DNA of 4,814 nt from a virus (Duplodnaviria; Heunggongvirae; Uroviricota; Caudoviricetes), in IMG/VR virus record IMGVR_UViG_2695420744_000014; one strand, written 5' to 3'. Positions 1 through 4,814 of this stretch are shown piece by piece; position 1 is the stretch's first letter, and every line of letters starts with the position of its first letter. A program made the position numbers and the translations under genes. A model generated the notes under the pieces. It made no database searches. It was not told where the DNA came from and was given only the letters and a program-made list of their open reading frames with translations.

Positions 1-63
1 GGAAACGATGATCTGGCAGCCTGAGTTCACAGATAAAACACTCTCCAGGAAACCCGGGGCGGT

Positions 64-300
64 TCAGACCTCCCCGGTCAGCATATCCTGTGCTTCAGAT
101 TTTACTGGCCGCTCTTCGGTTACCCGGGATTCACCTTCGCCAGCCAGAAACCAGGTGTGACCAGTTTTATCAACGACGCCTTTTCTTTTGAGTTCCCACA
201 GCTCGTTGACAGCCTCTTCACGACTGATTCCAAGGCGAGCTGCCACCACATGTGAAGAGGCTTTTTTCAGTGCTTTCAGTGCGTCAGATACGGTTTCCAT
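64..300 (-). CDS. Small (78 aa) putative winged-helix/HTH DNA-binding protein, function unknown; last gene of the minus-strand replication operon in this window
   Basis: ATG at 300-298 preceded by SD GGAGGA (complement of 308-313) with 7-nt spacer; stop at 64-66. Sits 21 nt downstream of the DnaC-like gene stop. The stretch VAARLGISREEAVNELWELKRKGVV looks like a recognition helix plus wing. Family assignment not verified. Confidence 0.6.
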   Translation of the reverse strand: METVSDALKALKKASSHVVAARLGISREEAVNELWELKRKGVVDKTGHTWFLAGEGESRVTEERPVKSEAQDMLTGEV

Positions 301-321
301 TAAAATTTCCTCCGGACAAAA

Positions 322-1068
322 TTACTTCACAACCCTCATATTGCTGACATTTGGACGCCAGCTATCCCAGTTAAACGTCACCCATCGACCACCGTTCATG
401 GTCATGCGGTCCATAATCCTCTCACCAAGAAGCGTACTCATTGCGGCATGATTCAGGTTTGTTAACATCCCGACACTGCACAGTGATGCTGTCCGGCGAT
501 CAATTATCTGGTGCAATACCACCTGCTCGTTTTTCGTCTCCCGCTGAACGCCTATTTCATCCAGGACCAGCAAATCAACCCCGCAAAGCTCCTGTAAAAA
601 TTTTTCCCCGGATTTGCCGTTGTCGTAGCTGTCATGCAACACGCTCATGACGTCAGACACGGTGACGATAATCACGCTGCGCCCCTTCACCATCAGCCGG
701 TTGCCCATCGCCGCTGCAAGGTGATTTTTCCCGGTGCCGGTTTTACCGCTGAACACAAAATTCGTGCACCCGGTCATCAGTTCGTCAGCTATGGATTTGG
801 CCTGGCTCAGCGCGTATTTTTGCCCGTCGTTCTGCACCTGATAATTTGCAAACGAGCATTTGCTGTGCAGAGGCTGGATGCCCGAACGATTCAGGATTTT
901 TTCCACCCGCAACTGGCGATTCTGGCGGTTAATCTCCTCGCTGCGTTTTCGTCCTTCAGCAAGTTGCCATTCCCGCCACTCCTCCACCGTCCGGTACGGT
1001 GGAACCGACCCCTGTGGTGCAAGTCTGCGAATACGTTCAAGAACCCCAACTGCCGCAATGTTTTTCAT
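322..1068 (-). CDS. DnaC-like AAA+ replicative helicase loader (phage P-equivalent; IstB/DnaC family), 248 aa
   Basis: Full-length ORF; ATG at 1068-1066 lies 6 nt after the stop of the upstream O-like gene. Walker A-like GKTGTGKNHLAAA and Walker B-like LLVLDEIG are present. Strong recalled similarity to E. coli DnaC across the whole length (for example FANYQV, SQAKSIADE, FVFSGKTGTGKNHLAAA, TNLNHAAMSTLLGERIMDRM). Same size and position as Rac-prophage YdaV, but the symbol is left blank because identity was not checked. Confidence 0.9.
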   Translation of the reverse strand: MKNIAAVGVLERIRRLAPQGSVPPYRTVEEWREWQLAEGRKRSEEINRQNRQLRVEKILNRSGIQPLHSKCSFANYQVQNDGQKYALSQAKSIADELMTGCTNFVFSGKTGTGKNHLAAAMGNRLMVKGRSVIIVTVSDVMSVLHDSYDNGKSGEKFLQELCGVDLLVLDEIGVQRETKNEQVVLHQIIDRRTASLCSVGMLTNLNHAAMSTLLGERIMDRMTMNGGRWVTFNWDSWRPNVSNMRVVK

Positions 1069-1074
1069 GACACG

Positions 1075-2007
1075 TCACCCCCTGAATCCCGGCGGTATTT
1101 CAGTGTCCGGTTCAGAAATGTGATTCACGCAACGCTGCGCAGGCGAACGCCCTAGGCGGATAACCAGTTCATCCCATTTTTCCCGGAGTTTTGCCGGACT
1201 CATGATGTTTTTTACCCAGAACGAATCCCGCTGGAGACGCCCAAACATTTCACAAATTTGTCTGTGAGTTCTGCCATCCAGCATCCGCATTGTGCGAACG
1301 TCATTGGCCCATGCTGTCCAGTTGGGTTCTTTCGGTCTAGTGATCTCGCCATCATAGCTGGCCGCCTGCTCGTAAAGACTCACGATTCGTCCCCAGATCC
1401 ACTGTGCGCACACCAAATCTTCCTGACTTCCCCACTGGCGTTTTTTCGCACTGAACACAACCGCGTCAGGGTGTCGGGTTAAAAAATCCTGTTCAGCCGT
1501 CTGCGGGTCCGGTTGCGAAGCGTCCGGACAAGAAGATCTTTTATCTGACGGATCAGGTTTTAATACTGACGGATCGGGGTCAATCATCGCCCCCCTAATC
1601 GGCAGTTTTTTATCAACAGTTGATCCATCAAAATTTGACGGGTCAACCGTTGAGGGGTCATTTTTTGCCGGGCTAATTTTTCTTTTCGGTTTATATGACT
1701 CACGCGCCGCCGCCGCAGCTGCTTCGAGTTTTTCCACATTAAGCCGATAGATATTGCTTACATTACGCCCACCGACCTTACGCTCTTCCTTCGTCAGCCA
1801 GCCCTCTTTCGCCAGTTCTGCAATAGCCGATTTCACTGTGGATTCACTTCTTGCACCGATCTGACGCCGGATAGTTTCAATGGCAGGCCATGACACGCCC
1901 TCGTCATTGCTGTAGTCTGCAAGACGGGCCATAACCGCCACCCTGGATAAGATCATGCCGGTGAAGGCGCACCCTTCCCAGACAAGACCATGAAGCTTGC
2001 TGCTCAT
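1075..2007 (-). CDS. Phage replication initiation protein, lambda O-like architecture: N-terminal winged-helix DNA-binding domain, low-complexity linker, C-terminal domain possibly DnaT-like
   Basis: Long ORF directly upstream of and coupled to the DnaC-like gene. The preferred start is ATG at 2007-2005 (MSSKLHG...), preceded by a GGGGG run with a 4-nt spacer. The ORF track extends to a GTG at 2022, which is less likely. N-terminus has wHTH-like sequence (ETIRRQIGARSESTVKSAIAELAKEGWL); the middle is a poly-Ala and DP/PS-rich linker coinciding with DNA repeats; the C-terminal domain is W-rich. Domain names are inferred from recall. Confidence 0.8.
   Translation of the reverse strand: MSSKLHGLVWEGCAFTGMILSRVAVMARLADYSNDEGVSWPAIETIRRQIGARSESTVKSAIAELAKEGWLTKEERKVGGRNVSNIYRLNVEKLEAAAAAARESYKPKRKISPAKNDPSTVDPSNFDGSTVDKKLPIRGAMIDPDPSVLKPDPSDKRSSCPDASQPDPQTAEQDFLTRHPDAVVFSAKKRQWGSQEDLVCAQWIWGRIVSLYEQAASYDGEITRPKEPNWTAWANDVRTMRMLDGRTHRQICEMFGRLQRDSFWVKNIMSPAKLREKWDELVIRLGRSPAQRCVNHISEPDTEIPPGFRG
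1545..1700. repeat. Putative replication origin inside the O-like gene: iteron-like direct and palindromic repeats followed by an AT-rich tract
   Basis: Seen directly. CTGACGGATC(A/G)GG at 1545-1557 and 1566-1578, with related TGACGGGTCA at 1636-1645. Palindromes ATCAACAGTTGAT (1612-1624) and TCAACCGTTGA (1643-1653). GGGGTCA at 1576-1582 and 1654-1660. A T-rich stretch follows at 1658-1700. The repeats encode the DP/PS-rich linker of the initiator, as for ori-lambda inside gene O. Confidence 0.5.
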
Positions 2008-2029
2008 AAAACCCCCGAACACCGTGCTT

Positions 2030-2455
2030 TTAGTGCATCACCACAGCATTCCCTGCCGGGCCGCCGCGATTCATCTGGTCATACAAAACAACCGCTGACG
2101 CAACAAAATCATCGACATCCTTCACCAGCCGATCCCTCCGTTCGACGATCTCACGGTAATATTCAGAACTGTGGCTGCGCATACGGGCCACCAGCAAAGG
2201 CGGCATCGCCTTTTCGATCGCCGGTAACAGAGCCTGCATTTTTTCAACAGCATCAGGGGTGTCTTTATCCAGCCAACGGAAAATTTTCTGGGTATTACGG
2301 GCCAGGGCTTCCGGATGGCTGTCGTCGTACAGTTCAGGGAACGTCATCCCCAGTTCGAAATAAGTCCGGGCTATTTCAGCTGCAGGAACTTTCTCACCAT
2401 CAGGGTATGCCCAGGCATTCATCGCCATGCGGATGTGCTCATGTTTGATTTTCAT
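2030..2455 (-). CDS. ydaT: YdaT-family protein (CII-like HTH regulator; reported as toxic when derepressed), 141 aa
   Basis: ATG at 2455-2453, stop TAA at 2032-2030. Its start overlaps the last 17 nt of the upstream Cro-like gene in another frame (translational coupling). Sequence recalled as the YdaT family of Rac / CP-933P prophages. It occupies the cII position between cro-like and O-like genes. Confidence 0.85.
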   Translation of the reverse strand: MKIKHEHIRMAMNAWAYPDGEKVPAAEIARTYFELGMTFPELYDDSHPEALARNTQKIFRWLDKDTPDAVEKMQALLPAIEKAMPPLLVARMRSHSSEYYREIVERRDRLVKDVDDFVASAVVLYDQMNRGGPAGNAVVMH

Positions 2456-2762
2456 GAATCATTTGCCTCTTGATGCTTCGGGTATGATCGTTTTCGTCAT
2501 TTGGTTGCTTCATCGACATATTCTGCGAATAACATGACGAGCGTCGTAAGTATGTCCAATCAACATCAGGACGAAGTTCTTCACACAGGACACCACCTTT
2601 TGTTGCTCGTTCAATCGCAGGACATCTCTCAGCAGGTAACTGACGTACACCTTTGATCCATTGATTTACGCTTGGAGGAGATACACCTAAAAGCCTAGCC
2701 ATTGCTGATTGCCCACCGACAACAGCACAAGCTCGTTTGAATGAATAGTTATCTTTTTTCAT
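2439..2762 (-). CDS. ydaS: YdaS-family Cro-like HTH protein (XRE-type), about 107 aa
   Basis: Preferred start ATG at 2762-2760 (MKKDNYSF...) with SD GGAG (complement of 2771-2774) about 8 nt upstream. The ORF track extends to 2783, but that start would sit inside the predicted promoter. HTH-like segment ACAVVGGQSAMARLLGVSPPSVNQWIKG. First gene downstream of the pR-like promoter, divergent from the repressor. Confidence 0.8.
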   Translation of the reverse strand: MKKDNYSFKRACAVVGGQSAMARLLGVSPPSVNQWIKGVRQLPAERCPAIERATKGGVLCEELRPDVDWTYLRRSSCYSQNMSMKQPNDENDHTRSIKRQMIHENQT

Positions 2763-2789
2763 CGAATGAACTCCAAAAAACACGCAACA

Positions 2790-2819
2790 ATATTAGGCTT
2801 AGCCTAATGAAATTGTCAA
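2790..2819 (-). promoter_or_regulatory. pR-like sigma70 promoter for the ydaS-ydaT-replication operon
   Basis: On the minus strand: -35 TTGACA (complement of 2814-2819), 18-nt spacer, -10 TAATAT (complement of 2790-2795). Predicted start near 2783, about 20 nt before the ydaS ATG. Both hexamers overlap operator palindromes. Confidence 0.55.
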
Positions 2820-2859
2820 TAGGCTATGCCTAATACATCGAGAGTAGGGATTGCCTAAC
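2792..2859. promoter_or_regulatory. Right operator region: three 17-bp palindromic repressor-binding sites between racR and ydaS
   Basis: Site 1 ATTAGGCTTAGCCTAAT (2792-2808, perfect palindrome); site 2 AATAGGCTATGCCTAAT (2818-2834); site 3 AGTAGGGATTGCCTAAC (2843-2859, degenerate). Centre-to-centre spacing is 26 and 25 bp, like lambda OR1-OR2-OR3. Binding by the adjacent repressor is inferred. Confidence 0.55.
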
Positions 2860-2886
2860 GCGATGCGCATAGGAGACTATTAAGCA

Positions 2887-3363
2887 ATGCTTAGTGGTAA
2901 AGACTTAGGCCGAGCGATAGAGCAGGCCATTAACAAAAAAATTGCATCAGGAGCCGTCAAATCAAAGGCGGAAATCGCACGTCATTTCAAAGTCCAACCA
3001 CCATCAATCCATGACTGGATTAAGAAAGGTTCGATAAGTAAAGACAAACTTCCAGAACTATGGCGTTTCTTTTCTGATGTGGTTGGTCCAGAGCATTGGG
3101 GGCTTAACGAATACCCCATACCAACCCCATCCACTTCAGATACAAAAAGTGAACTTTTAGACATAAACAGCCTTTATCAAGCCGCCTCTGATGAAAAAAA
3201 AGCAATTGTGGCTTTCATCTTATCTGGAAATGCTACGGAGCCTAGTTGGGTTGATTATGACGTTCGCGCCTACATTGCCGCAATGGAAATGAAGGTAGCT
3301 AACTATCTGAAAAATCAAGAATCAAAACGGAAAAGCCAGAACATCACCAAGACAGGAACTTAA
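2887..3363 (+). CDS. racR: RacR-like prophage repressor (N-terminal XRE/cI-type HTH, no S24 peptidase domain), 158 aa
   Basis: ATG at 2887 with AGGAG at 2871-2875 (spacer about 11 nt, slightly long); stop TAA at 3361-3363. Divergent from the Cro-like gene and flanked on both sides by the operator palindromes. HTH-like N-terminus (GKDLGRAIEQAINKK...KAEIARHFKVQPPSIHDWIKKG). Length and context match Rac-prophage RacR; identity is from recall. Confidence 0.8.
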   Translation: MLSGKDLGRAIEQAINKKIASGAVKSKAEIARHFKVQPPSIHDWIKKGSISKDKLPELWRFFSDVVGPEHWGLNEYPIPTPSTSDTKSELLDINSLYQAASDEKKAIVAFILSGNATEPSWVDYDVRAYIAAMEMKVANYLKNQESKRKSQNITKTGT

Positions 3364-3437
3364 ACTTATATGGTCCGACGGGAAATTCCTAGTTCCCGTT
3401 AGTTAACTCCTACTACCTCTCCCACAAACCATCACCT

Positions 3438-3500
3438 ATTAGGTTGCGCCCAAATTATTAGGCATAGCCTATTGACAAGTAATTAGGCATTTCCTATAGT
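3438..3500 (+). promoter_or_regulatory. pL-like sigma70 promoter with left operator sites, driving plus-strand genes downstream of racR
   Basis: -35 TTGACA at 3472-3477, 17-nt spacer, -10 TATAGT at 3495-3500. Operator-like palindromes ATTAGGCATAGCCTATT (3457-3473) and ATTAGGCATTTCCTATA (3482-3498) overlap the -35 and the spacer/-10; a degenerate third site lies at 3438-3454. The 23-mer TATTAGGCATAGCCTATTGACAA (3456-3478) is an exact inverted copy of 2813-2835. Confidence 0.55.
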
Positions 3501-3681
3501 TTTCCCATACCAACCCATCCCGTCCCACACAATACAGGGCAATACCTCGAGTTACCAGGCAGTGGTCAGGGGTTAAGTAGCCAGCCCGAGGCGTAAGAAC
3601 ATGACGGCAGGGTTCAACTTTAATAACTATGCAGCAGGTTTTTGTTCCGCTACCCCGGCGTTAAGGGGAAATGAGGTCAGC

Positions 3682-3834
3682 ATGGATACTATCGAGCTTG
3701 GCAACAACGAATCTCTGGTATGCGGCGTGTTTCCCAACCAGGACGGCACGTTTACCGCGATGACATATACCAGAAGCAAAACGTTTAAAACTGAAGCTGG
3801 CGCGCGTCGCTGGTTAACCAGAAACACTGACTGA
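3682..3834 (+). CDS. Small early-left protein (50 aa), YdaF-like / DUF1391-like by recall
   Basis: ATG at 3682 with SD GAGG at 3673-3676 (5-nt spacer); stop TGA at 3832-3834. The ORF track starts at ATG 3601 (77 aa), but that start has no convincing SD. Family assignment is tentative. Confidence 0.5.
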   Translation: MDTIELGNNESLVCGVFPNQDGTFTAMTYTRSKTFKTEAGARRWLTRNTD

Positions 3835-3845
3835 TGAGGTTGACG

Positions 3846-4166
3846 ATGGAATTTAAAGATTTACCAGTACCATTCCAGGAAATGGCATCGAATGTGGTTC
3901 GCTCTCAACTGGCGACTCTTGACCTGAGTACCGTAGAAAAAGAAACCATCGACAATATATCCGGTAACGTACGCCGAGCCTTTATCGGGCTGTACGAAGA
4001 GAAGCAGCTCTCTGATAACCAGGATTTACATGAAAAATACTTCCTGGATCTAATGGACATCATTGATAAGGGGTTTGGCTTGTTAATGAAAAAGAAAGGG
4101 ATTCGAATAGAACCCCTTGAAAATTACTTTGCAACAAAAAGCATTAATTCTTTTGATTCAAAATAA
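3846..4166 (+). CDS. Hypothetical protein (106 aa from ATG 3846), charged and probably helical, function unknown
   Basis: ATG at 3846 with SD GAGG at 3836-3839 (6-nt spacer). An alternative ATG at 3834 overlaps the upstream stop (TGATG). Stop TAA at 4164-4166. GC content falls toward the 3' end. I recognise no family. Confidence 0.5.
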   Translation: MEFKDLPVPFQEMASNVVRSQLATLDLSTVEKETIDNISGNVRRAFIGLYEEKQLSDNQDLHEKYFLDLMDIIDKGFGLLMKKKGIRIEPLENYFATKSINSFDSK

Positions 4167-4419
4167 GAGAATTAATTACAGACTTAACATGCTCTTTCTC
4201 ATGATTGAAGCTCTCATGATTGAAAGTGCCGGGTTGAAGCGAGTCGATATAATCAACAAGACTCTGTCGTACGACTTCATTTTTATCCATAACAGATGCA
4301 AGAAATGAAATTGCTAAAAGAGTTATATCACTACGCGCCGCAGCATGTTGCAATGCTTTATCAAAATTATTAATCTGGCGTATCAGGGAGTTAATGATTT
4401 CATCATTTTCAGTCGACAT
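4144..4419 (-). CDS. Hypothetical protein (91 aa), AT-rich, function unknown; convergent with and overlapping the 106-aa gene by 23 bp
   Basis: ATG at 4419-4417 with a strong SD AGGAGG (complement of 4425-4430) and 5-nt spacer; stop TGA at 4143-4141 (coordinates follow the ORF track's 3' boundary). The track ORF extends to 4752 from a TTG start; that extension is rich in rare Arg codons (CGG, CGA, AGG) and unlike the rest, so I treat it as non-coding. Contains a 15-bp in-frame tandem duplication. Confidence 0.5.
   Translation of the reverse strand: MSTENDEIINSLIRQINNFDKALQHAAARSDITLLAISFLASVMDKNEVVRQSLVDYIDSLQPGTFNHESFNHEKEHVKSVINSLILNQKN
4197..4226. repeat. Two-copy 15-bp tandem direct repeat (TCTCATGATTGAAGC / TCTCATGATTGAAAG) inside the 91-aa gene
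   Basis: Seen directly; 13 of 15 positions identical. In the minus-strand frame it encodes the duplicated peptide FNHES/FNHEK. Confidence 0.7.
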
Positions 4420-4439
4420 TTCACCCTCCTGAGGGTTGG

Positions 4440-4814
4440 TGATTAAGGAGTTCTCCACGGGTGAGGTGGAGTGCGTGCGCCGGACACGGGTGAGCATCCG
4501 GCACTGACAGTTTACTGAAAGGATATTTCCCTGAAAAGTCAGACCATAACGCGAAAGCGCCCGGCGAGGTAGCTGGTTCATAGATAGCCTGTCGTTAAAT
4601 TTTCGTCGACCGTGCGTTTCCGGTTGTGGCAATCCGCGAAATGGCGCGGCGGTAAGTATGGCGGGGTTATTCCTTCCCCGTTGAGGACACCGAGTTGTCA
4701 GGTTGACCATACGCTTAAGTGACAACCCCGCTGCAACGCCCTCTGTTATCAATTTTCTGGTGACGTTTGGCGGTATCAGTTTTACTCCGTGACTGCTCTG
4801 CCGCCCTTTTTAAA
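4440..4814. other. Structured, GC-richer, apparently non-coding block upstream of the 91-aa gene; possible long 5' leader, ncRNA or REP-like element
   Basis: No credible ORF on either strand. Hairpins read directly: CTCCAC/GTGGAG (4453-4471); GCCGGA/TCCGGC (about 4475-4504); CCGCG/CGCGG (4634-4649); CGGGG/CCCCG (4662-4680); GTTGTCA/TGACAAC (4694-4726). No sigma70 promoter for the 91-aa gene was found inside it. Confidence 0.3.

Follow-up and report, generated by a model that had tools for sequence, protein, structure and literature searches.

Genes of the module and its prophage

At the centre of the 4,814-nucleotide stretch of DNA analysed here (the window), positions 2030-3363 hold three open reading frames, ydaT and ydaS on the minus strand and racR divergent from them on the plus strand. 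racR (2887..3363, +) encodes a 158-amino-acid prophage repressor, an analogue of cI that has no S24 peptidase. It is identical to K-12 RacR at 142 of 158 residues in a gap-free alignment (90%) and belongs to the RacR equivalog family of NCBIfam (NF049929; 244.6 bits, cut-off 200). The Cro-like regulator gene ydaS (2439..2762, -) encodes 107 amino acids when counted from the ATG used by PGAP; an alternative 114-amino-acid ORF starts at a GTG at 2783 and overruns the promoter. YdaS, 85% identical to its K-12 counterpart, falls into PF15943 (103.7 bits, cut-off 30), carries a Cro-type helix-turn-helix (HTH; P22_Cro, 35.1 bits against a threshold of 30.2) and matches the Xfaso Cro structure (PDB 3bd1, E 2.8e-10). 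PDB entries 8co2 and 8c7k are matched at E about 1e-3; if both are CP-933P YdaS, that protein is only distant kin of the one here. The initial annotation had suspected a Cro-like C-terminus unlike that of K-12, and a DNA alignment explains the difference: relative to K-12, ydaS has lost 12 bp and, with a TGA-to-CGA change, its stop codon. The protein thereby gains 13 residues (RSIKRQMIHENQT), and its gene extends over the start of ydaT.

The third gene, ydaT (2030..2455, -), encodes a CII-like tetrameric activator of 141 amino acids that belongs to PF06254 (40.9 bits, cut-off 21) and matches phrog_163, ‘CII-like transcriptional activator’. It is of the CP-933P type, being identical at 134 of 140 residues (~96%; E 3e-89) to the crystallised CP-933P protein (PDB 8bt1); it also matches PDB 3c4r, and shares only 31% of its residues with K-12 YdaT. 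These alignments to K-12 and CP-933P bear out the earlier identification of the module as RacR-YdaS-YdaT and establish the identities of the genes.

Judged by sequence, the largest departure from K-12 is thus YdaT and not the YdaS tail. Because YdaT is CP-933P-like while RacR and YdaS are K-12-like, the module is a mosaic. Its breakpoints, at ~2432 and ~2463, lie beside the conserved YdaT-box. The module is a natural recombinant in which racR, ydaS and the operators resemble K-12 Rac, the replication genes and all but the first eight codons of ydaT resemble CP-933P, and the two are joined at the YdaT-box. The RacR/YdaS/YdaT switch is already known and well studied, and the present one is a common mosaic version: several complete E. 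coli genomes have an annotated racR locus to which its DNA is 100% identical, and a Rac-type racR-ydaS is combined with a CP-933P-type ydaT in roughly 10% of the complete genomes of the species.

Beyond ydaT, the rightward operon continues with an O-like replication initiator with an HTH_36 domain (1075..2022, -; PF13730, 27.9 bits) and a DnaC-like, YdaV-like helicase loader (322..1068, -; NCBIfam PRK12377, 506 bits; IstB_IS21, 68.6 bits). The initiator occupies the position of ydaU in the Rac gene order, although it is of a different family from the DUF1376 protein YdaU of K-12. On the other side, the first gene of the leftward operon encodes a small DUF1391 (YdaF/YdfA-like) protein (3682..3834, +; PF07151, 96 bits; annotated by PGAP). 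A minus-strand ORF at 4144-4419 was considered as a sieB equivalent and rejected, being unrelated to SieB.

The host prophage is integrated at ompW and looks intact, with its replication, Q, lysis, head and tail genes kept. In a search of phage collections for an isolated phage of the RacR type, the only good match was vB_EcoS-683R6, which proved to be a computationally excised prophage with host genes still present.

Compared with K-12 Rac (racR-ydaS-ydaT, b1356-b1358), gene order and orientation are the same, as are the four intergenic operators, the hexamers of the ydaST promoter, the 18-nucleotide YdaT-box and the presence of an operator/promoter cluster downstream of racR. In addition to the differences in YdaT, the YdaS tail and the initiator, the leftward operon here carries DicF and DicB, as in Qin, where K-12 Rac has kilR, and the prophage is apparently complete whereas K-12 Rac is defective. 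CP-933P/Sp12 of E. coli O157:H7 (paaR2-paaA2-parE2/ydaS/ydaT) shares its YdaT type, an inverted-repeat operator at the ydaS/ydaT junction and a lambdoid PR/PRM/PL/PRE logic (PMC8630535, PMC9986795), but there PaaR2 takes the place of RacR as the repressor, and a ParE2 toxin-antitoxin pair is embedded with it.

Operators and promoters on both sides of racR

A search with the RacR operator pattern WTAGGC-n3-GCCTAW found four operators between racR and ydaS (OR cluster, 2793..2894), at 2793-2807, 2819-2833, 2844-2858 and 2880-2894, the last of which covers the racR ATG. These correspond to the footprinted O1-O3 region of K-12, which comprises four operators (PMC9638921, PMC11879457), and are accordingly operators of the RacR family; the footprints of RacR on the intergenic racR-ydaS operators are published results (PMC9638921). 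The cluster is conserved from E. coli to Achromobacter. Within it lies PydaST, the analogue of PR (2790..2819, -), with TTGACA (2819-2814), an 18-nucleotide spacer and TAATAT (2795-2790); it matches 10 of 12 positions in a promoter scan, and the same hexamers are reported in K-12 (PMC11879457).

At the ydaS/ydaT junction, the YdaT-box (2445..2462; TTGATTTTCATGAATCAT), known as the OM operator in CP-933P, spans the ydaT start codon. With one mismatch to the consensus TTGATT-N6-AATCAA (PMC9986795), it qualifies as a YdaT operator, and on the opposite strand it reads exactly as the YdaT-box footprinted in K-12, ATGATTCATGAAAATCAA (PMC11879457). Its function is likewise drawn from published work: YdaT acts at this site to activate a PRE-like reverse promoter, and the Rac and CP-933P YdaT proteins cross-react (PMC11879457). 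K-12 YdaT binds the Rac-type intergenic region as well, which CP-933P YdaT does not do with the region of its own prophage. A putative homologue of that promoter, PracR4, was located inside ydaS by alignment to K-12 (2640..2672, +), with CTGACG as a -35 element weaker than the TTGACG of K-12 and TACGCT as the -10, the elements being those defined in PMC11879457.

A second set of predicted operators lies downstream of racR (OL-like cluster, 3439..3497), comprising a weak site at 3439-3453 (two mismatches to the pattern), a perfect one at 3458-3472 and one with a single mismatch at 3483-3497. racR is flanked on both sides by a 23-nucleotide perfect inverted repeat (2813-2835 / 3456-3478). Across the whole 49-kb prophage, the OR and OL-like clusters are the sole operator clusters, and the OL-like cluster is kept in K-12 and in distant genera. 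It overlies a near-consensus PL-like promoter (3472..3500, +; TTGACA-17-TATAGT; 11 of 12 matches in a promoter scan) that points outward from racR into the DUF1391/dicF/dicB/exo/xis/int operon. Its -35 and -10 are each overlapped by an operator, which is the geometry of PydaST, and the layout operator / -35 / operator / -10 recurs on both sides of racR in E. coli, Mixta, Proteus, Achromobacter and a Nitrosomonas MAG. The anatomy and conservation of operators and promoters on both sides are thereby established.

The initial annotation overlooked the operators as well as this second operator/promoter cluster, and our literature search found no report of RacR binding at, or any description of, the downstream PL-side cluster. 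Two published observations concern this side of the switch: ydaF, ydaG and kilR rise 40-70-fold in RNA-seq as RacR falls (PMC11014345), and a PL with repeated operators has been shown experimentally in CP-933P (PMC8630535). The conserved stretch of 180 nucleotides that separates the PL-like promoter from the first ORF was considered as a leader RNA; it folds no better than shuffled sequences (z +1.19), which led us to reject the idea, and has no match in Rfam.

Taken together, the region is very probably the lysis/lysogeny (immunity) switch of a lambdoid E. coli prophage of the Rac immunity type, with RacR in the role of cI, YdaS in that of Cro and YdaT in that of CII. RacR would bind palindromic operators in two clusters on either side of its own gene. 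Each cluster sits on a strong outward promoter, the -35 of which adjoins one operator while its -10 falls within the next. Since the operators abut or contain the promoter hexamers, bound RacR would shut off both promoters. On the PydaST side, where repression of ydaST is documented in the literature for the K-12 RacR protein (PMC5700373, PMC5700377), this would keep ydaS and ydaT off together with the two replication genes, O-like and DnaC-like; on the other side, RacR probably silences the PL-like promoter and with it DUF1391, DicF, DicB, exonuclease, xis and int. The operator over the racR start codon would allow autoregulation. Following infection, YdaT would occupy the YdaT-box and so raise the transcription of racR that starts at the reverse promoter inside ydaS.

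The parallel with lambda lies in a repressor gene placed between two multi-operator clusters, each over an outward early promoter, in a divergent Cro-like gene and in a CII-like tetramer that activates a reverse promoter. In contrast, RacR has no sequence homology to lambda cI beyond the generic HTH fold and lacks its S24 domain, the operators (15-17 bp with a 3-bp spacer) are unlike those of lambda, and the clusters lie ~640 bp apart rather than 2.4 kb. Moreover, because K-12 YdaS is reported not to repress racR (PMC9638921), the Cro analogy is imperfect.

The peptidase-less repressor and its induction

RacR begins with an HTH domain (residues 1-72), which a flexible linker (~73-87) joins to a C-terminal domain of three helices; its AlphaFold model is all-alpha (pLDDT 81). 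The suggestion that it lacks a LexA/cI-type self-cleaving domain, through which classical phage repressors sense DNA damage, holds up: the Pfam search gave no Peptidase_S24 (PF00717) match at E <= 0.1, the sequence has no GDSM-type motif, and neither AG nor CG dipeptides occur anywhere in its 158 residues, leaving it without an Ala-Gly (or Cys-Gly) cleavage site. As a positive control, the relatives P0101, P0102 and P0114 score 68-76 bits on Peptidase_S24. The absence of the S24 domain is therefore established. The accompanying description of RacR as ‘only HTH’ does not stand, as the protein possesses a conserved, helical C-terminal domain of ~70 residues with the motif PxWVDxDxRAY and the conserved positions Y97, E103, P119, W121, D125, A128 and Y129. 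We found no solved RacR structure, and a Foldseek search with the model returned weak XRE, HipB and lambda cI N-terminal-domain matches and none for the C-terminal domain.

Relatives exist in which an N-terminal DNA-binding domain 86% identical to that of RacR is fused to Peptidase_S24 and goes with the same operators; these S24-bearing proteins have SAGNG in the linker. Their homology to RacR ends at the linker, and the RacR C-terminal domain is therefore a genuine alternative module. As its C-terminal half is helical and not an S24 peptidase, RacR should not be induced by RecA-stimulated self-cleavage. Doubt about autocleavage of this repressor, also voiced in the initial annotation, had been raised before (Lemire et al. 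2011, PMC3121763; Ragunathan et al. 2023, PMC10448788), and Lemire et al. 2011 (PMC3121763) named RacR in a class of short peptidase-less repressors. With 158 amino acids and no S24 domain, it indeed resembles the ~135-160-amino-acid repressors GfoR/GtgR of Gifsy and DicA, which are countered by the antirepressors GfoA, GftA and Rem. Sequence kinship between RacR and DicA was rejected, as BLASTP finds none; the ‘Gifsy/DicA class’ is therefore an architectural grouping and not a sequence family. A further difference is that no cognate or LexA-boxed antirepressor locus was found here.

Most likely, we infer, RacR is inactivated without proteolysis, by an antirepressor encoded outside the window or on another prophage, or gives way when stress or noise flips the RacR/YdaS bistable switch. 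The latter route would need no dedicated inducer, a heat-unstable repressor or oxidative stress acting through OxyR sufficing, as in DicA/DicC and CP-933P; we regard it as possible but tentative. Bistability has been demonstrated in CP-933P (PMC8630535), urea or heat derepresses Qin with no need for Rem or RecA (PMC10448788), and OxyR binds the Rac intergenic region (PMC11879457); the failure to find a LexA-controlled antirepressor in this prophage points the same way. However, SOS input is usual in most intact lambdoid prophages, and the S24-bearing relatives with the same operators suggest an immunity type that is normally coupled to a signal.

An SOS-controlled antirepressor within the same prophage, of the Gifsy, 186 Tum or Rem kind, appears less probable still. 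Profile and PHROG searches of the window genes returned no antirepressor candidate, in keeping with the initial annotation, and extending the search to the surrounding prophage, as had been proposed, produced one weak candidate, a Rha-family gene by attR (NZ_CP030768 4211489-4212046). Its product would bind the RacR C-terminal domain, of which the conserved residues listed above could form the docking surface, and strip RacR off the DNA. Gifsy short peptidase-less repressors and DicA are controlled in this manner by antirepressors (PMC3121763, PMC10448788), the Rha-family protein matches the anti-repressor families phrog_373 (4e-28), phrog_2379 and phrog_63, and its gene has a strong promoter-like site of its own. 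But no convincing LexA box lies upstream, the lone candidate (CTGAAAGAAAAAACAG) being poor and ~150 nucleotides off the promoter, and Rha-domain proteins are not established as antirepressors for this repressor class. Nor does a Rem homologue occupy the rem position: the 90-amino-acid protein between DUF968 and hokD, where Qin has rem, was rejected, having no similarity to Rem and no annotated family. In the 44.7 kb around the window there is no perfect CTGT-N8-ACAG LexA box; one-mismatch matches in the tail-side 33 kb are mostly intragenic, and the sole good LexA-like box in the prophage lies inside a methyltransferase gene. A second RacR prophage, moreover, has no Rha gene; its late lysis cluster contains a gene with an Ant-N domain instead.

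That the module is at heart a toxin-repressor or atypical toxin-antitoxin (addiction) system, in which YdaS and YdaT serve to kill cells or stop their growth once RacR is lost and the repressor is retained mainly to silence them, is very improbable: the Pfam names are still ‘YdaS_toxin’ and ‘YdaT_toxin’, and the literature agrees with the initial annotation that K-12 racR is essential unless ydaS-ydaT is deleted and that ectopic YdaS or YdaT is toxic (PMC5700373, PMC5700377), but racR is divergent from ydaST rather than co-transcribed with it as a type II toxin and antitoxin are, control is transcriptional and exerted at operators and promoters, YdaS is a Cro-fold HTH protein and YdaT an operator-binding tetramer with a defined site and CII-like activity (PMC9986795, PMC11879457), and CP-933P YdaT, of the type found here, showed no toxicity (PMC8630535). 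The toxin-antitoxin-like character initially ascribed to the module thus has its basis in reported toxicity, while the framing itself is disputed (Jobling 2018, PMC5917428, a critique that makes the same points; Jurenas 2021, PMC8630535). It is also unnecessary, adding nothing for a prophage whose lytic genes are all still in place, where loss of the repressor would be lethal anyway.

Implications for the Rac immunity type

As a discovery, the locus offers little, given that genetic, biochemical and structural studies have taken apart the lysis/lysogeny switch to which it belongs since 2017 and that the idea of pairing short repressors with antirepressors dates from 2011. Its value lies first in the clear annotation of a common mosaic allele, in which a Rac-type repressor and Cro are combined with a CP-933P-type CII. 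The predicted control of the PL-like promoter by RacR would, moreover, account for the ydaFG and kilR derepression seen in published work, and in the present prophage would extend to the division inhibitors DicF and DicB.

Further value resides in the finding of one DNA-binding domain and operator set both with and without an S24 domain. It is conceivable, albeit speculative, that the RacR DNA-binding module and its operators, including the apparently undescribed PL-side cluster, constitute a fixed ‘immunity cartridge’ with interchangeable signal-input domains, namely the S24 autoprotease in some prophages, giving RecA-dependent induction, and the three-helix domain in RacR proper, whose ligand may be an antirepressor or a stress signal. 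If so, the apparently intact ompW prophage would be a tractable system for finding the inducer of RacR, and one in which looping cooperation between operator clusters 640 bp apart could be tested.

Module identity and mosaic composition

The window DNA is an E. coli prophage, with positions 62-4814 being 100% identical to several complete E. coli genomes, such as NZ_CP030768, in which PGAP labels the matching positions racR, 'toxin YdaT family protein' and HTH protein. In the ORF listing, the CII-like ydaT (2030-2455) and the Cro-like ydaS (2439-2762) lie on the minus strand and the repressor gene racR (2887-3363) on the plus strand; a longer GTG-start ydaS ORF, up to 2783, reaches into the promoter. 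Scores far over the curated cut-offs for RacR (NCBIfam equivalog NF049929, 244.6 bits, cut-off 200), YdaS (Pfam PF15943, 103.7 bits, cut-off 30) and YdaT (Pfam PF06254, 40.9 bits, cut-off 21) argue that the arrangement is real and not due to chance. These scores agree with alignments to K-12 and the O157:H7 prophage CP-933P, confirming the RacR-YdaS-YdaT identity proposed in the initial annotation.

RacR matches K-12 RacR at 142 of 158 residues and YdaS is 85% identical to its K-12 counterpart, whereas YdaT shares only 31% identity with K-12 YdaT and 134 of 140 residues with CP-933P YdaT (crystal structure 8bt1). The suspicion that the YdaS C-terminus is unlike that of K-12 was borne out by DNA alignment: NKSS is lost through a 12-bp deletion and CGA replaces the K-12 stop codon TGA, so that YdaS is 13 residues longer, reading through both the YdaT-box and the start codon of ydaT. 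DNA homology to K-12 Rac spans the region downstream of racR, ydaS and ydaT up to codon eight (MKIKHEHI), ending at ~2430.

At least 80% of window 2030-3500 is present in 530 of 5,426 complete E. coli genomes, among which partial matches to this query break off at its positions 403 and 432-434. Both breakpoints flank the YdaT-box, and the window stretch 2432-2463 (~30 bp) holds this box and the ydaT start. Breaks on either side of the box thus point to the ~30-bp conserved sequence as a mosaic joint, which, judging from the alignments, unites a Rac-type repressor/Cro cassette with a CP-933P-type CII/replication cassette; 2432-2463 apparently serves as a conserved joint at which immunity cassettes recombine with CII/replication cassettes. 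The YdaT-box itself (2445-2462) has exactly the sequence of the one footprinted in K-12. Since both YdaT types, ~30% identical, bind and activate via one shared box (PMC11879457), the combination of Rac-type repressor/Cro with CP-933P-type CII should work.

Operators on both sides of racR

The published RacR operator consensus, W-TAGGC-n3-GCCTA-W (PMC9638921), was found by pattern search at two places in the window. The first, the OR cluster in the racR-ydaS intergenic region, comprises sites at 2793, 2819, 2844 and 2880, of which the 2880 site covers the ATG of racR, in agreement with the 'four operators' reported in K-12; these overlap PydaST, the PR analogue driving ydaS-ydaT (TTGACA/18/TAATAT, minus strand). 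The second lies downstream of racR, with a weak site at 3439, a perfect one at 3458 and a site with a single mismatch at 3483, overlapping a near-consensus promoter (TTGACA-17-TATAGT, 3472-3500) that fires away from racR. No further operator cluster occurs across the 49-kb prophage. Bracketing racR is a 23-nt perfect inverted repeat, TATTAGGCATAGCCTATTGACAA (2813-2835 and 3456-3478), which gives both promoters an identical operator and -35 hexamer; by our own estimate, ~1e-8 such repeats are expected by chance in the 921-nt region.

The layout is conserved: one operator has as its last base the T of TTGACA, and the 3' half-site of a second contains the -10 hexamer. E. coli, E. ruysiae, Mixta, Proteus, two Achromobacter genomes and an unclassified Pseudomonadota MAG all have it at both flanks of the repressor gene, with extra genes separating the repressor from the second cluster in Achromobacter, like rexAB in lambda. 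In a Nitrosomonas MAG the layout is confined to the PR side, and no downstream operator cluster was found at that locus. The second cluster is therefore a predicted OL/PL analogue, at which we infer RacR binding from sequence. This reading fits the 40-70-fold increase of ydaF, ydaG and kilR in RNA-seq upon RacR depletion (PMC11014345), whose authors describe the RacR regulon as uncharacterised in detail, and the experimentally shown PL of CP-933P (PMC8630535). We found no description of RacR sites downstream of racR in the published literature.

Separately, a direct repeat of 13 nt with no mismatch, CCCATACCAACCC, has one copy inside racR (3115-3127) and the other directly following the PL-like promoter's -10 (3504-3516); its chance expectation is ~0.006 (own estimate), and the second copy is imperfect in K-12.

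RacR architecture and the route of induction

The initial annotation described the repressor as only an HTH region without a LexA/cI-type self-cleaving domain. The latter part holds: RacR has no Peptidase_S24 match in a Pfam search even at E = 0.1, its sequence lacks Ala-Gly and Cys-Gly dipeptides as well as a GDSM motif, and its AlphaFold model (55 homologues, pLDDT 81) is wholly helical. The former is contradicted by the same model, in which a five-helix HTH domain (1-72) and a low-confidence segment (80-87) are accompanied by three C-terminal helices (84-153) carrying the near-invariant residues Y97, E103, L112, P119, W121, D125, A128 and Y129; this conserved domain presumably serves oligomerisation and/or signal input. 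RacR has no sequence relative in the PDB, and Foldseek finds only weak resemblance of its N-terminal domain to XRE, HipB and the lambda cI N-terminal domain.

A homologue search recovered three longer relatives (P0101, P0102 and P0114; 226-235 aa), which share up to 86% identity with RacR over residues 1-77 and consist for the rest of a bona fide S24 domain (68-76 bits) with a SAGNG site, GDSM and a KR motif. The locus of P0102 (L017 4001-4708) is a prophage immunity region with a 63% identical YdaS-like Cro and the same operator consensus at both promoters. Such relatives lend good comparative support to the view that RecA-stimulated autocleavage of RacR is unlikely, as already inferred in print (PMC3121763; PMC10448788).

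Ranked above self-cleavage, which is very unlikely, are a trans-acting antirepressor from somewhere in the genome and flipping of the RacR/YdaS switch by stress or noise, akin to that documented for DicA/DicC and CP-933P. As first noted, the window holds no antirepressor candidate: Pfam, NCBIfam and PHROG find no such signature in its other ORFs (one for a DUF1391 protein, one for a 106-aa protein of PHROG-6937, and one of 91 aa on the minus strand). In the proposed search of the surrounding prophage, the sole antirepressor-like gene, of the Rha family (PF09669), lies beside attR, matches PHROG 'anti-repressor' families and has a strong promoter-like site upstream, but no convincing LexA box there, and the rem position holds no Rem homologue. 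The only good LexA-like box in the prophage, and the only such site in the ~78 kb scanned, is TACTGTAAAAATATCCAGTT (16/20 to consensus, CTG and CAG exact; late region of NZ_CP030768, L001 14655-14674), in the opening codons of a DNA methyltransferase gene located downstream of Q. A second RacR-type prophage with the same module (NZ_CM167691, at potC) has no Rha gene; its late lysis cluster instead contains a 'phage antirepressor N-terminal domain' gene (L020 4875-5444).

Upstream of the Rha-family gene, at the attR end (L004 20200-20320, minus strand), an annotated 'ash family' CDS has a TTG start that falls within a near-consensus promoter (TTGACA-17-TATATT), followed ~80 nt downstream by a terminator-like hairpin and a T-run; the region may encode a short RNA or leader, instead of or besides a protein.

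Prophage context and the toxin-antitoxin framing

Inserted in ompW, the host prophage appears complete from its gene content: int, xis, exonuclease, dicB, the immunity region, O-like and DnaC-like replication genes, Q, lysis, terminase, head and tail. A DicF sRNA gene lies at 4755-4806 on the plus strand (Rfam RF00039, 76.7 bits, threshold 48), followed in the matching genome by dicB and a DUF1482 (YdfD-like) gene; the leftward operon thus carries Qin-type division inhibitors, where Rac has kilR. Antisense to this operon, at the position of sieB in Rac, is the 91-aa ORF (4144-4419, minus strand), which shows no SieB similarity and no Pfam, NCBIfam or PHROG family. At the window's other end (1-66), the first ~61 bases are no part of the prophage backbone in the genomes that match best; they match an IS3-family element instead (reverse complement beginning TGAACCGCCCCGGG), which takes its family name from an IS3 transposase annotation in the joined match. 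The element truncates a DUF1627 gene, of which ORF 64-300 retains only the N-terminal 78 codons.

The toxin-antitoxin-like character ascribed to the module is contested. In K-12, racR is essential and ectopic YdaS and YdaT are toxic (PMC5700373, PMC5700377), but later work and commentary treat YdaS/YdaT as Cro/CII analogues (PMC5917428, PMC8630535, PMC9986795, PMC11879457), and CP-933P-type YdaT, the type carried here, was non-toxic (PMC8630535). Derepression here would also switch on the replication genes, DicF, DicB and finally the lysis genes, so lethality of a repressor deletion would say nothing specific about YdaS/YdaT.

The module is a known, common and well-characterised system, for which the earlier reasoning was sound, though not new. 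To this we make three modest additions: the predicted OL/PL cluster, the placement of the mosaic junction at the YdaT-box, and the S24-bearing relatives with the same DNA-binding domain and operators, by which RacR operator specificity exists with and without an autoprotease.
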